Notes under the pieces: generated by a model | The model's database searches: none | What the model was told of the DNA's origin: nothing | The model's input: the letters and a program-made list of their open reading frames with translations, nothing else | From: a virus | Strand: one strand, 5' to 3' | Length of the DNA stretch: 64,000 nt | IMG/VR virus record: IMGVR_UViG_3300012931_000017 | Span: 33,415 to 97,414 of that record | Shown: positions 7,950-63,365 of the stretch, piece after piece | Position numbering within the stretch: position 1 is the stretch's first letter | Layout of the letters: each line of letters opens with the position of its first letter | Program-made: the position numbers and the translations under genes

Positions 7950-7985
7950 TACTTTTAAAATAACATTTTAAAATATAATTGTCAA
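7950..7985 (-). promoter_or_regulatory. copy of the conserved early-promoter element, minus-strand orientation, driving uvsY
   Basis: The reverse complement reads TTGACAATTATATTTTAAAATGTTATTTTAAAAG, about 25 nt upstream of the uvsY start. Confidence 0.6.
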
Positions 7986-8356
7986 ATCATCTTCTAATTT
8001 TTAATCTTCATTGGCACTCTACTATATGTATTCAGATCTTAGATCTTTTCATATAATCCTAAAGGATTATATGTTGCTTAAAGTCTTACACCAAATATTA
8101 GTTAAATTAGTCTTAAAACATCTTATTAGTCTTTATAGTCTTAATAGTTAAATTTATAATCAAAAGACGTAGTCTTTTGTCTTATAGCTTTAGCTATAAG
8201 ATAATTTAATAACCTTTAATTTCTTTATTATAGTATATCATTCAAGAAATCGATAAAAATGCCCGAATTTGGTAAATAATACTTATTCTTTGGGTAATAA
8301 CTAAAATACACTAATTTGGTGATAATTTTATAAGAATATGAGTAGATTTTATTTTA

Positions 8357-8488
8357 CATTTCAAATCTATCTTTAAAACCTATTTAAACTAATAATAACC
8401 AGTTTAAATCAGTGAAAAATAGAAAAGGTATACTCGTCTATGCCTAAAATCGTTTCATTGATTTGTAGAGGTTTAAATTAGTTGAAGA
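8357..8488. repeat. right arm of the ~130-bp inverted repeat
   Basis: See 6944..7074. Confidence 0.8.
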
Positions 8489-8499
8489 TAAAACATCTA

Positions 8500-8604
8500 C
8501 AAATAGGTTTAAATCTTAGGTTCTTGTTCCTAGCGGAACAAGAAGGACTAAAGTCCGCGTTCTAAGGACTAATCTTTGTAGATAATAACTAAATAGTTTT
8601 AAGT
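8500..8604. repeat. repeat unit A1 (57-bp block plus 36-bp block) containing the perfect palindrome TTCTTGTTCC-TAGC-GGAACAAGAA at 8521-8544
   Basis: Near-identical copy at 8919-9022. Confidence 0.85.
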
Positions 8605-8653
8605 TTAATTAGTGGTTTGTGTTTAATTAGTTTATTAGATGAAGATTTTTTAA

Positions 8654-8839
8654 TTTTTACCAAAGAGGATCAAAAATTGAACGGCGCTTTATTTTACGTT
8701 AGTAAAATAAATAATAAGATAATCTTAATACACTTAATAATATTAATAATACTAATAATTATAAGTTTTATTATGAAAAATATCTGCTAAATCTTTTCTA
8801 ATTAATATAATATTTTAAAATATAATTGTCAAGTGGCAT
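8654..8839. repeat. repeat unit B1 (~186 bp) ending in a minus-strand copy of the conserved promoter (TTGACA complement at 8826-8831)
   Basis: About 90% identical copy at 9268-9449. Confidence 0.85.
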
Positions 8840-8918
8840 AATTTACCTTATTTTTATCAAAAATTTGAATCAAATAAGATAACAAAATAGTTCCTAAAAC
8901 CTATCTGGTTATAATATC

Positions 8919-9022
8919 CAAATAGGTTTAAATCTTAGGTTCTTGTTCCTAGCGGAACAAGAAGGACTAAAGTCCAAGCTATATAACTAATCTTTGTAGA
9001 TAATAACCAAATAGTTTTAAGT
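8919..9022. repeat. repeat unit A2 with the same perfect 10-bp-arm palindrome at 8940-8963
   Basis: See 8500..8604. Confidence 0.85.
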
Positions 9023-9267
9023 CCTACCTGATGTAATTAGTTTTATTAACCAAAACTTAGAAAATTTTAAATCCACCATATTATTAGTTTAACTTCAACC
9101 AAAGAAGATTTTACAGGTTCTGGTTCTTAAAGTAACCTTAAGGACTAAAGTCTAATTAAGTTTAGATTTTTGGTTAAATTAATTTTGAATATTTTTGAAG
9201 ATAATAACCAAATAATTTTTTGTTCAGAAAAACGAATTTTTTAATTCTAATTTTTAACGATGTTTTC

Positions 9268-9449
9268 AATTTTTATCAAAAAGGATGGAAATTCAGGATG
9301 GCTCTTTATTTTACGTAGTAAAATAAACAATAAGATAATCTTAATATTACTTTAAAGATTATAATATTATTATTATTTTTTTATGAAAAATACCTTATAA
9401 ATCTTTTCTAATTAATATAATATTTTAAAATATAATTGTCAAGTGGCAT
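9268..9449. repeat. repeat unit B2 ending in a minus-strand promoter copy (TTGACA complement at 9436-9441)
   Basis: See 8654..8839. Confidence 0.85.
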
Positions 9450-9531
9450 TTTATTGAACTAAAAATGCTTAATTTTACTTTACTTTAGGTAATTCGTTTT
9501 GTAAAGTAAACTGATGTTAAAATATGGTGAT

Positions 9532-9566
9532 TTGACAATTATATTTTAAAATGATATCTTATAATA
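9532..9566 (+). promoter_or_regulatory. conserved early-promoter element upstream of gp46
   Basis: TTGACAATTATATTTTAAAATGATATCTTATAAT. It is divergent from the minus-strand copy at 9436-9441. Confidence 0.6.
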
Positions 9567-9592
9567 AACAAGAGAATAATAAAGGAGACCAA

Positions 9593-61269: not shown

Positions 61270-61275
61270 TAAATT

Positions 61276-62094
61276 ATGAATAATGCTATTTTTATGGTTA
61301 CTAATGAAAAGTATTTTGTATATACTAAAGCTTGTATAAATTCAATAAAAGACAATTATCCTAATCATCCAGAAATAATATTGGTTTGTAAGTATACTAA
61401 CAAAGATGAATATTTTTTGAATTATTTCCGAAATTTAGAAAATGTTATATTAAAAACATATCATTATGAGGATCTTAATCTTTGTTTAAACCCAATAGGA
61501 GATGATATAATCTACCAAAAATTATTTCTTTGGAATAATACATTCAATACAGATTATTATGATAATATATTACATTTAGATTGCGATACGTTAGTTCTAA
61601 AACCTTTAGATTATTTATTTAAACAAGATCAATTTTATATAGCTCAAAATTTTGAAAATTTACCCCATATTTCAACATTTGGTTCTAAAGGAGATGATAT
61701 ATTAAGAGTTAAACTTAATACTAATAATCTACCAAAAGATACTAATTGTATAATGGCTAATGCTGGAGTTTTTGTTATTCCTAAAAAATATAGAAACATT
61801 AATCATTATAATACATTACTAAAACTAGGTTATGAATTTAATGATTATATTGCTTATGCTGACCAAAGTATAATTTCTTTATGGTGTCATTATAATAATA
61901 TTCCTATAGTTCAAGATTACACATTCAATTTTCAAACTACTTTCAGTACATTAATGAATAAATTTAAACTAGAAGATCTTAGTATTATTCATTTCTCTGG
62001 ATATAAACCCGATAGTGACGATTATAATAATTGGAATTGGGTTTCGGAAAAGTTTAAAAAGTGGTCGTTAGATCTTTTTAAACGTTATGCTTGA
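61276..62094 (+). CDS. glycosyltransferase family 8-like (LPS glycosyltransferase / glycogenin fold)
   Basis: 'NAIFMVTNEKYF...' N-terminus, 'LHLDCDTLVL' DxD, 'NAGVFVI'. Confidence 0.5.
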   Translation: MNNAIFMVTNEKYFVYTKACINSIKDNYPNHPEIILVCKYTNKDEYFLNYFRNLENVILKTYHYEDLNLCLNPIGDDIIYQKLFLWNNTFNTDYYDNILHLDCDTLVLKPLDYLFKQDQFYIAQNFENLPHISTFGSKGDDILRVKLNTNNLPKDTNCIMANAGVFVIPKKYRNINHYNTLLKLGYEFNDYIAYADQSIISLWCHYNNIPIVQDYTFNFQTTFSTLMNKFKLEDLSIIHFSGYKPDSDDYNNWNWVSEKFKKWSLDLFKRYA

Positions 62095-62126
62095 CAATTA
62101 TAATTCCATTTATTATATTATAAATA
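62091..62126 (+). promoter_or_regulatory. variant promoter: TTGACAATTATAATTCCATTTATTATATTATAAATA (early-like box followed by a T4-late-like TATAAATA at 62119-62126)
   Basis: gp55 is encoded in this window, and TATAAATA is the T4 late-promoter consensus. Confidence 0.5.
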
Positions 62127-62173
62127 ACGTAGAATAAGACATGATAGTTTAAACCTTAAATGATTGGATTTTT

Positions 62174-62503
62174 ATGTACAAACCTAAAGCTTATGGTCAA
62201 AGAGTTATTGGTATTCGTAATCGAGAACTTCAAGAGAAGAAGTTTGGTTCAATTATATTAGCTCCGACTGCTGCTGATATTGAAATGGTTGATGAAATTG
62301 AAGTGTATCAAGTTGGTAGAGGTTATGTTTCTCAGAGTGGTATTATAGTTCCACTAGAAGTTAAAGTTGGTGATAAAGTGTTGATTTCAAAAAATACAGC
62401 ATTTCCATTACCAAAAACTGGTGATGCAACTTTTGATGCAACTAAAGAATATGTAGTTTTTCAAGAATCTGATATAGTTTCTGGAAAAGAAGTAGTTTCA
62501 TAA
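62174..62503 (+). CDS. GroES-like co-chaperonin (T4 gp31 functional analogue)
   Basis: 'GQRVIGIRNRELQEKKFGSIILAPTA...VYQVGRG...PLEVKVGDKVLI...EYVVFQESDIV' follows the GroES pattern 'P.GDRV.V.R.E.E.K.GGI.L......G.V.AVG.G...P..VKVGD.V.F....EY.....DI'. Confidence 0.65.
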   Translation: MYKPKAYGQRVIGIRNRELQEKKFGSIILAPTAADIEMVDEIEVYQVGRGYVSQSGIIVPLEVKVGDKVLISKNTAFPLPKTGDATFDATKEYVVFQESDIVSGKEVVS

Positions 62504-62516
62504 GTTAATTTTTTAT

Positions 62517-62589
62517 AGCCTGATCGTCCAATAGGTTAGGATACGAGATTTTGAATCTTGTGATCTAAGTTCAAGTCTTAGTCGGGCTG
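62517..62589 (+). tRNA. tRNA-Gln (TTG)
   Basis: Acceptor AGCCTGA/TCGGGCT, D-arm GTCC-AATAGGTTA-GGAT, anticodon arm CGAGA-TTTTGAA-TCTTG, T-arm CTAAG-TTCAAGT-CTTAG. Confidence 0.75.
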
Positions 62590-62612
62590 TTTATTTCTTT
62601 GGATAATAAACT

Positions 62613-63218
62613 ATGGACAAAATTGATAGATTTGTTTCTAAAGCTGTTATAGAACTAATAAATTCTAATATTGGTGTAGAATTTATTAATAAGTCCAGAA
62701 TTGAATATTTTACGGATAGTGGTGTATCATATAACTGTGATGGTTGTTTTGATTCTGAAAAATTAACTGTTGCTATTGATAAAGATAAAAAAGACTGGTT
62801 TATCACATTTATACACGAATATTGTCATTATCTTCAAATGGTTTCTAATGATCCGTGTTTCTTTAATCAAGACGTTTATGGTGTTGATGAGTTTGAAAAT
62901 TGGATTAATAAAGAAACTGAAATTAAAGATAATTTATTGAAAAAAGCTATAAAATCTATTCAACTTTGTGAACATAATTGTGATAAGAAAGCTGTAGAAT
63001 TAATTAAAGCCTATAAACTACCAATTAATACTTCAGACTATATTAAACAATCAAATGCTTATGTTTTTACTTACGAGTTTCAAAGAAGATATAGAACTAA
63101 TCTTAATACACCTTTTTATGAAGTGTTTGAAGTTTGGTCTTTATTTAAAGATAGCTGGTATTCTGATTATTCTAAACTGCCAAAAAATATTGAAAATAAA
63201 ATGCTTGAGTTTATTTGA
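62613..63218 (+). CDS. hypothetical protein with an HExxH motif (201 aa)
   Basis: 'FIHEYCHYL'. Confidence 0.3.
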   Translation: MDKIDRFVSKAVIELINSNIGVEFINKSRIEYFTDSGVSYNCDGCFDSEKLTVAIDKDKKDWFITFIHEYCHYLQMVSNDPCFFNQDVYGVDEFENWINKETEIKDNLLKKAIKSIQLCEHNCDKKAVELIKAYKLPINTSDYIKQSNAYVFTYEFQRRYRTNLNTPFYEVFEVWSLFKDSWYSDYSKLPKNIENKMLEFI

Positions 63219-63230
63219 ATCCTCTTAAAT

Positions 63231-63303
63231 GCAATAGTAATTTAATAGATAAAATCCAAAACTTCCAATTTTGTGTATGAGGGTTTGAGTCCCTCCTATT
63301 GCT
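63231..63303 (+). tRNA. tRNA-Gly (TCC)
   Basis: Acceptor GCAATAG/CTATTGC, D-arm ATTT-AATAGATA-AAAT, anticodon arm CAAAA-CTTCCAA-TTTTG, T-arm GAGGG-TTTGAGT-CCCTC. Confidence 0.8.
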
Positions 63304-63329
63304 CTTTTCTTCTTCTCTTCAATTTTTTC

Positions 63330-63365
63330 TTGACAATTATACTTTAAAATTTAATATTATTAATA
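63330..63365 (+). promoter_or_regulatory. conserved early-promoter element
   Basis: TTGACAATTATACTTTAAAATTTAATATTATTAAT. Confidence 0.6.

Follow-up and report, generated by a model that had tools for sequence, protein, structure and literature searches.

A repeated early-type promoter with a conserved spacer, probably read by the host sigma factor, in an uncultured T4-like phage

The early promoters of bacteriophage T4 contain 'additional regions of consensus' besides their sigma70 elements (Hinton 2010, PMC2988021), and T4-like phages repeat such promoters in front of early genes, novel open reading frames (ORFs) and tRNAs (Nolan et al. 2006, PMC1524935). Near-identical promoters are also known to mediate the shuffling of gene cassettes (Arbiol 2010, PMC2839356; Comeau 2014, PMC4122927). 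Here we describe a 30-bp element that recurs between the genes of a 64,000-nucleotide stretch of viral DNA (IMG/VR record IMGVR_UViG_3300012931_000017, positions 33,415 to 97,414; the whole stretch is called the window, and coordinates refer to it). The element is probably a prereplicative, early-type promoter of a T4-like phage that is recognized by the primary sigma factor of the host, with a spacer maintained by selection and copies homogenized within the genome.

As in T4 and its relatives, the sigma70-type copies are numerous, have a 17-bp spacing and stand before prereplicative genes, novel ORFs and tRNAs; their consensus exceeds the two hexamers, and octamers of the gp55-dependent late promoter type, TATAAATA, occur alongside. 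The differences from T4 early promoters are that the -35 box is the canonical TTGACA, as in phage RB49, rather than the GTTTAC of T4, that most copies lack a TGn motif, that the upstream A/T (UP-like) signal is weak, and that the spacer is almost invariant and not merely biased. The element reads as a lineage-specific consensus among T4-like early promoters, with a behavior resembling that of early promoter stem-loop (PeSL) cassettes but lacking the stem-loop.

The exact 12-mer TTGACAATTATA occurs 18 times in the window, 16 times between genes and twice within them, against an expectation of ~0.1 from base composition (~25% GC). Likewise, a 16-mer search allowing up to two mismatches gave 18 matches compared with 1.7 in shuffled sequences, and a 29-mer search allowing up to three gave 9 compared with 0. 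An earlier note on this DNA had reported at least 14 repeats and listed 16 positions, all of which carry the element, the minus-strand 5' ends (7985, 8832, 9442 and 48800) falling no more than 1 nt from the listed values. Five copies (21335, 32857, 34642, 40337 and 63330) are identical over 29 nt, and the copy at 13988 is one base off. Alignment of the 16 intergenic copies, to which the following counts refer, yields the consensus TTGACA, a 17-bp spacer (ATTATAYTTTAAAATnT) and tATwTT. Positions 1-12 (TTGACAATTATA) are invariant and include the exact -35 hexamer in every copy, position 13 is T or C, and positions 14-21 (TTTAAAAT), a stretch outside the search criterion, are near-invariant. The -10 hexamer occupies positions 24-29 at a fixed spacing of 17 bp, with A25, T26 and T28 (-11, -10 and -8) present in 16/16 copies and T29 (-7) in 15/16, the exception being an A in the 48800 copy; A30 is found in 14/16. 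This end of the element is otherwise variable (AATATT, TATTTT, TATATT, TATCTT, GATTTT). The almost complete invariance first described for ~30 bp therefore applies to positions 1-21, with the -10 end departing from it, and the -10 box originally given as TAATAT after a 16-17-bp spacer fits, at 16 bp, the main variant only, tATwTT at 17 bp being the form that fits all copies.

Spacer positions 7-21 are near-invariant, and the spacer is better conserved than the -10 hexamer. Information content is at background by position 0 and by position 31, so that the conserved block comprises positions 1-30, and upstream of the -35 box there is a weak A/T-tract pattern of 0.2-0.6 bits per position on a background that is already A/T-rich. 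As conservation ends sharply at both hexamers, there is no strongly conserved UP-like extension, and the conservation beyond the boxes that had been taken to imply an extra binding or UP-like function is that of the spacer between them. Only this hardly varying stretch between two promoter boxes is unusual about the element. The pattern TTGACA-N17-nATnnT is present at 18 sites in the window, 16 of which are this element, compared with ~2 expected from the 42 TTGACA hexamers. ATTATA in the spacer is the reverse complement of TATAAT, and an antisense or bidirectional promoter was accordingly considered and rejected, as the other strand has no -35 box or TG at the right distance. A literature search for the 12-mer returned no relevant paper.

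Table 1. Copies of the element, related promoter sequences and late-transcription features in the window.
Feature	Position	Strand	Context
Element copy	7956..7985	-	56 nt upstream of uvsY-like gene (start 7929)
Element copy	8803..8832	-	no downstream ORF; heads ~610-bp repeat unit in 1.5-kb non-coding region
Element copy	9413..9442	-	no downstream ORF; heads second repeat unit; divergent from 9532 copy, 89 bp off
Element copy	9532..9561	+	upstream of gp46/SbcC-like gene (true start 9593, an ATG at 9551 falling inside the promoter); gp55 and gp47 genes then follow
gp55-like late sigma factor gene	11365..11745	+	factor expected to read TATAAATA
Element copy	13988..14017	+	upstream of nucleoside 2-deoxyribosyltransferase-like gene (14053)
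Element copy	16243..16272	+	upstream of DNA polymerase gene (16295)
Element copy, main variant	21335..21364	+	upstream of ORF 21390; gp32 gene in same unit
Intragenic 12-mer copy	27521..27550	+	within nrdG-like gene; weak 3' half
TATAAATA	29280..29287	+	intergenic, 39 nt upstream of nrdD-splitting ORF; candidate late promoter
Element copy, main variant	32857..32886	+	upstream of queE (32954); terminator-like hairpin 32886-32915 overlaps predicted start
Element copy, main variant	34642..34671	+	upstream of folE (34698)
Element copy, main variant	40337..40366	+	upstream of gp45 sliding clamp gene (40406)
gp45-like gene	40406-41113	+	sliding clamp homolog
Intragenic TTGACAATTATAC...N17...TATATT	46898..46927	+	within deoxynucleoside monophosphate (dNMP) kinase gene, 109 bp upstream of 47007 copy
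Element copy	47007..47045	+	upstream of Zn-ribbon gene (47065); TATAAATT at 47038-47045, 7/8 match to late consensus
TATAAATA	48770..48777	+	intergenic, 97 nt upstream of hsp20; same place in relatives L044 and L048
Element copy	48771..48800	-	antisense to RNA ligase gene; -10 box TATTTA (last position A)
Element copy	49309..49347	+	upstream of tRNA-Glu/Tyr/Met cluster (49357); exact TATAAATA at 49340-49347
Variant promoter TTGACA-AACACCTTTCCAACAAT-TATATT	49700..49734	+	TTGACA site 49706; left copy of 35-nt perfect direct repeat
Variant promoter	50322..50356	+	TTGACA site 50328; right copy of 35-nt repeat, at 3' end of HNH ORF, upstream of next gene
Element copy	55897..55926	+	upstream of 845-aa major-vault-protein-like gene (55973)
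Element copy	62091..62126	+	upstream of GroES-like gene (62174); exact TATAAATA at 62119-62126
Element copy, main variant	63330..63359	+	3' of tRNA-Gly, ~85 nt upstream of the last ORF of the window

Most of the copies are placed as promoters would be (Table 1). Thirteen of the 16 lie 48-97 nt upstream of a co-oriented gene start or tRNA, close to the 40-90 bp that had been reported for every copy; the remaining three (8832 and 9442, which have no ORF, and 48800, which is antisense to the RNA ligase gene) do not conform. The divergent pair at 9442 and 9532 is separated by 89 bp, much as the earlier note had it. Genes to the left of ~7.9 kb (uvsY, uvsW, head and neck genes) are on the minus strand and all genes to the right are on the plus strand. 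The window is the reverse complement of the first 64 kb of a 97.8-kb ENA metagenome contig. The late regions, which comprise ~7 kb at the left end of the window and a further ~7 kb of structural genes elsewhere on this contig (neck, gp2, portal, prohead protease and scaffold), have no copy in a total of ~14 kb, compared with 16 copies in the other 56 kb. This agrees with a confinement of the motif to early regions, and the support is modest because a uniform density would predict only ~3 copies there.

Several related sites were not part of the original list, namely the two intragenic copies (27521 and 46898), the pair with a variant spacer (49706 and 50328), and the TATAAATA of hsp20, which overlaps the inverted 48800 copy at its -10 end. 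The 27521 copy has no counterpart at the matching place in L005 and L025, the relatives that cover this region, and the 46898 and 47007 copies could possibly form a tandem promoter. No counterpart of the 48800 copy was found in the relatives L044 and L048, and with its altered -10 box this copy is probably degraded or non-functional.

Relatives of the phage were collected with a 21-mer scan of IMG/VR and JGI metagenomes, and more distant ones through homologs of the RNA ligase; the relatives come from biogas fermenter and other metagenomes. The closer set (L001/L017, L003, L004/L005, L008, L021, L025, L030 and L032-L034) is syntenic with the window at ~70% nucleotide identity. These relatives carry the element at matching intergenic positions, upstream of uvsY, gp46, the gene at 14053, the DNA polymerase gene, ORF 21390, queE, folE, gp45 and the last ORF. 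Between orthologs (ten pairs), the 30-bp element has 85% identity, while the 40-bp flanks on its two sides are 54% and 55% identical and indistinguishable from deliberately mismatched flanks (52.4±1.3% and 53.7±1.4%). Over positions 1-21, the two lineages have the same consensus except at position 13. As the element is conserved to this degree while its flanks are at the random baseline, the sites are old, with the spacer held by purifying selection: between the lineages, neutral intergenic changes have reached saturation, and the whole block, spacer included, has been retained. The very recent spread that the earlier note had proposed is not compatible with such positional conservation between randomized flanks, although the sequences have indeed been made uniform within each genome.

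This homogenization is evident from the comparison of paralogous and orthologous copies. Over positions 13-30, all nine of the window copies tested (9/9) are closer to a paralog in their own genome than to their positional ortholog, and pairing by orthology gives no shorter distances than random pairing (P=0.92). At the queE, folE and gp45 sites, the window copies have C13 together with ...TTTAATATT and those of the relative have T13 together with ...TTTTATTAT, so that the same four differences recur at three sites; the C13/TTTAATATT variant is common to the five identical window copies. This shared pattern requires either that copies have recombined or undergone gene conversion with one another or that many changes occurred in parallel, and as the copies resemble paralogs in their own genome more than their orthologs, they are evolving in concert.

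More distant members of the group depart from this pattern. L047 (GC 35%) and L065 (GC 34%) have TTGAC(A/T)-N17-TATAcT or TATATT promoters with variable spacers, and L066 (GC 27%) has TTGACT-N17/18-TATATT with a T-rich spacer that is conserved in part only. L044 and L048, with ~65% amino-acid identity in the ligase, have a similar spacer at the tRNA promoter and not at another promoter. As distant members use variable spacers, the near-invariant spacer is a trait of the lineage and not a requirement of the family.

Taken as a host-sigma early promoter, the element would be bound by host RNA polymerase with its primary sigma factor at the TTGACA -35 box and at the tATwTT -10 box 17 bp downstream, and transcription would start ~7 nt beyond the -10 box. 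Roughly a dozen rightward units would be driven in this way, containing replication, recombination, nucleotide-metabolism, 7-deazaguanine, chaperone and tRNA genes, in addition to the leftward uvsY unit. Direct recognition by the host primary sigma factor appears the most economical explanation because the -35 box is perfect, the spacing canonical and the A and T of the -10 box invariant, and the earlier description of a sigma70-like promoter agrees with the sigma70/sigmaA-type anatomy, position and orientation of the copies, which would serve prereplicative genes and tRNAs. The likeliest reason for purifying selection on the spacer, ATTATAYTTTAAAAT, would be that its sequence or shape optimizes polymerase binding or opening; less likely, a further factor may bind within it. 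Homologous recombination or gene conversion would homogenize the copies in each genome and so produce their near-invariant look, and the same copies would also serve as breakpoints for the gain and duplication of cassettes. The phage carries UvsX, UvsY and gp46/47, which make up the T4 recombination machinery.

Some observations weigh against this reading. Recognition by a host sigma factor is deduced from sequence, and the commonest -10 box, AATATT, is a modest match to TATAAT. Generic sigma70 scans are uninformative at 25% GC, with 169, 176 and 136 matches in the window compared with 157, 147 and 119 in shuffled sequences, and as such matches are equally common after shuffling, statistical weight attaches to the extended motif only. 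Three copies (8832, 9442 and 48800) would have no gene to serve. Finally, contacts with polymerase do not normally demand 15 invariant spacer positions, and there is room for an extra factor because L047, L065, L066 and the pair of promoters flanking the HNH ORF manage with variable spacers.

The alternative that best survives, although we regard it as unlikely, is a factor-dependent promoter or operator in which the TTGACAATTATA box and the TTTAAAAT spacer core bind a lineage-specific protein, such as a phage activator comparable to the MotA/AsiA system of sigma appropriation or a repressor that ends early transcription, so that host polymerase alone would not be decisive. A spacer that exceeds the -10 hexamer in conservation and has been held by purifying selection across lineages between randomized flanks would be in keeping with such a protein, and the same hexamers with variable spacers in related phages and in the HNH pair indicate that a generic promoter does not need this spacer. 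In the T13 variant, positions 10-23 also form a near-dyad (ATATTTTAAAATnT). However, TTGACA followed at 17 bp by a -10 box whose A and T never vary is exactly what a host sigma factor needs, and MotA-type promoters do without a -35 box; a MotA-dependent middle promoter does not fit, as all copies have the canonical -35 box in place of a MotA box (TGCTT) at -30. Among the ~80 ORFs scanned with PHROGs or Pfam in this incomplete genome, none matched MotA, AsiA or any other regulator. A dyad-symmetric operator in the spacer was set aside, as the dyad has 6/7 pairs in A/T-only sequence (chance about 0.06) and is broken by the C13 variant, which has spread to six copies. An extended form of this alternative, which we hold to be improbable, is that a dedicated phage factor (an activator, an anti-activator or a polymerase modifier delivered with the virion) reads TTGACAATTATA/TTTAAAAT and times prereplicative transcription, while the ORF-less copies near uvsY are R-loop origins of the T4 ori(uvsY) type. 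If true, T4-like phages would here have solved the switch from early to middle transcription in a new way.

A purely historical uniformity, in which a promoter-carrying repeat was recently spread or homogenized by recombination and the spacer has no function, is very improbable. It would account for the clear signature of concerted evolution, the five identical copies and the cassettes bounded by copies, yet neutral homogenization would let the consensus drift at the mutation rate, and positions 1-21 differ at a single position (13); moreover, the sites are positionally orthologous, which argues against a recent wave of insertion. A recombination or replication element (an iteron, a packaging or site-specific recombination site, or a repeat resembling a miniature inverted-repeat transposable element) with an incidental likeness to a promoter is hardly credible, for although two copies lie in an ORF-less, repeat-rich 1.5 kb at a switch of transcription direction and GC skew and some cassettes that were duplicated or inserted have copies at their edges, the element extends exactly from the -35 to the -10 hexamer, 13/16 copies are co-oriented with a downstream gene at a promoter-typical distance, there are no terminal inverted repeats or target-site duplications, and the copies are dispersed over 56 kb with none in the late module.

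Some of the copies with the host-sigma early promoter anatomy are joined to a putative late promoter. Over the entire window, the octamer TATAAATA shows no enrichment (22 observed compared with 25.4±4.7 expected), being common by chance at 25% GC, and weight is therefore given only to instances that are intergenic and conserved. In the gaps between plus-strand genes, there are four sense copies (29280, 48770, 49340 and 62119) compared with 0.62 expected (P~0.005) and no antisense copies. A fifth spans the stop codon of nrdD, upstream of the homing-endonuclease gene, and is kept in L032. In the structural module, two exact octamers lie in the sole large gap, which precedes the scaffold gene, and one more lies 26 nt upstream of the ORF that follows the portal gene. 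As a gp55 homolog is present and the octamer is enriched between genes and conserved in relatives, TATAAATA is plausibly the late promoter of this lineage. The arrangement shares with the gp55/gp33/gp45-dependent late promoters of T4 the exact octamer, the gp55 and gp45 homologs, and a location both in what few gaps the structural module has and ahead of hsp20 and homing-endonuclease-like ORFs; it differs in that the octamer is at chance level window-wide and that no gp33 homolog was recognized in the window.

Tandem prereplicative-plus-late promoters are known for some T4 genes. Three copies of the element had been described as composites containing the late consensus, and the octamer is exact at 49309 and 62091, with the 47007 copy matching it in 7/8 positions as TATAAATT. 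Firing both early and late, as was then suggested for all three, is plausible at 49309 and 62091 in view of the gp55 homolog, the behavior of TATAAATA and the retention of the 62091 composite form in the relative L034, and less so at 47007, where the octamer is inexact. As TATAAATA follows directly downstream of the element at these two early-plus-late candidates, the tRNA cluster and the GroES-like gene would probably be transcribed both before and after the onset of replication.

A close parallel to the behavior of the copies is found in the PeSL cassettes of RB49/phi1, T4/PST and KVP40/nt-1, which are likewise near-perfect repeats of a TTGACA-N17-TATAAT-like promoter with high mutual identity. 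As in these systems, copies flank small cassettes (the HNH ORF within 35-nt repeats and the tandem ORF-less units), and homogenization implies recombination between them. Cassettes or insertions and deletions that differ between relatives may likewise be flanked by copies, in two instances (the HNH ORF and the 1.5-kb region, represented by 166 bp in L001). In contrast to PeSL, the defining upstream stem-loop terminator is missing at 14/16 copies, the sole clear hairpin lies downstream of a -10 box (at queE), and what follows most copies is a conserved core replication gene, not an ORFan in a hyperplastic region. When the 55 nt upstream of all 16 copies were folded, only two gave a z-score of about -1.9 or lower (8833-8887 and 62036-62090), and terminator scans found none upstream of the copies. 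With an upstream stem-loop at only 2/16 copies, the element is not a PeSL in the strict sense.

At the queE promoter, a terminator-like hairpin with a U-run follows immediately after the -10 box (-17.2 kcal/mol, z -5.9), and RNA beginning at the predicted start would keep only a weak remnant of it (-6.3 kcal/mol). The queE ortholog in L005 has a hairpin of different sequence in the same place (about 2270-2305, minus strand), which suggests a terminator of upstream read-through that promoter-initiated RNA would escape. Just after the tRNA cluster, an HNH endonuclease ORF (49772-50368) lies between the perfect 35-nt direct repeats (49700-50356), each holding a TTGACA-N17-TATATT promoter with a spacer that is richer in G+C and wholly unlike that of the main element; this unit looks like a mobile cassette, inserted with duplication of the promoter.

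The two copies without a downstream gene are within a 1.5-kb region (7986-9530) that lacks any ORF of at least 60 aa and separates the leftward and rightward gene blocks at the switch in GC skew, each copy heading a repeat unit of ~610 bp. The first ~115 nt after each of these promoters are AT-rich and unstructured. A hairpin module is present in three copies, two of them perfect (TTCTTGTTCC-nnnn-GGAACAAGAA), and the module at 8490-8600 (minus strand) folds strongly (z -4.5). In T4, ori(uvsY) and ori(34) consist of a promoter and a downstream unwinding element that forms an R-loop primer, and T4 origins use MotA-dependent middle promoters. The window resembles ori(uvsY) in having the two copies beside uvsY, followed by AT-rich unstructured sequence, at the switch of transcription direction and GC skew; it differs in that the copies are not of the MotA type and that the closest relative does without the 1.5-kb region, which is only 166 bp in L001. 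The region could encode non-coding RNAs or be an origin like ori(uvsY). Nearby, a 131-nt inverted repeat with 94% complementarity (6944-7074 and 8358-8488) brackets uvsY, ORF 7090-7479 and the uvsY promoter copy, and may represent either a segment capable of inversion or a small element present twice.

For this uncultured phage group, the element provides a transcription map and an annotation key, with about a dozen prereplicative units, candidate late promoters, and tandem early and late control of tRNA and chaperone genes as its predicted entries. It is also a clean natural case of 30 bp shaped by two forces at once, purifying selection across lineages and concerted evolution that erases orthology in each genome. 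Its near-invariant spacer makes it a simple test case for spacer function and bears on the old question of what purpose the 'additional consensus' of phage early promoters serves. The current understanding of phage transcription is unchanged, and to the specialist the result will be tidy rather than surprising.

The gene content of the window is that of an uncultured, deep-branching T4-like phage from anaerobic digesters or biogas reactors, as judged by its encoded homologs of gp43, gp45, gp44/62, gp46/47, gp55 (between gp46 and gp47), gp32, gp41, gp61, UvsX/Y/W and the T4 portal and prohead protease. In a protein search, the DNA polymerase was ~31% identical to the polymerases of cultured T4-like cyanophages; megablast of its gene against cultured phages gave no nucleotide match, and an IMG/VR protein-pattern search with the polymerase returned no relatives. 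The window also encodes a split anaerobic ribonucleotide reductase, RNA ligase, Thg1, NAMPT, Hsp20, a GroES-like protein, a major-vault-protein-like protein and five tRNAs. Searches with Rfam recovered the five tRNAs only; they showed neither a riboswitch upstream of queE nor a group I intron where nrdD is split, and gave no credible match in the 1.5-kb non-coding region. A 21-mer scan of bacterial genome contigs gave 14 scattered single matches in unrelated bacteria, of which half were Bacillota; none of the matches was related to the window, and no host was assigned.

Two further observations concern promoters outside the window. The low-GC contig Ga0265297_10001881 (L012/L022) contains dense arrays of a very similar promoter (gtaTTGACAATTAtATTTTAAAATGATATGAT...), with five copies in 2.6 kb before small ORFs. 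It showed no protein similarity to the window in the parts compared and was used neither as a relative nor as an independent phage of the same host; it may belong to a second phage with that host or to a hyperplastic part of a relative's genome. A small ORF (ATGAAAACGATAAAAATA...) with its own TATAAATA, back-to-back with promoter copies, occurs in L005 (2356), L008 (1425), L021 (3206) and L034 (2684), at two different loci in the relatives; it is absent from the window and looks like a repeated, late-expressed cassette.

Within the window, the loci 14053-14903 and 32954-39903 together contain the genes of a 7-deazaguanine pathway (queE, folE, queC, a PTPS/QueD-type enzyme and a TGT/DpdA-like gene), a methyltransferase gene and two nucleoside 2-deoxyribosyltransferase-like genes, and this set suggests a modified guanine in the phage DNA. 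In the split nrdD gene, one ORF at 27775-29253 encodes the N-terminal part and another at 30487-31512 the C-terminal part, with a 394-aa ORF (29319-30503), preceded by TATAAATA, between them and a GIY-YIG-type homing endonuclease gene following at 31617. The 845-aa protein encoded at 55973-58510 matches the shoulder domain of the major vault protein (Pfam PF11978, E 8e-28) and, more weakly, the vault repeat and SPFH domains; such a protein is unusual for a phage, and it is served by its own promoter copy. The region 47479-62503 is rich in genes for RNA repair and host physiology, including RNA ligase, a Thg1-like tRNA-His guanylyltransferase, a nucleotidyltransferase, NAMPT, a cytidylyltransferase-like protein, a patatin, Hsp20 and the GroES-like protein, and between tRNA-Tyr and tRNA-Met it contains a remnant resembling a tRNA T-arm (49578-49596).

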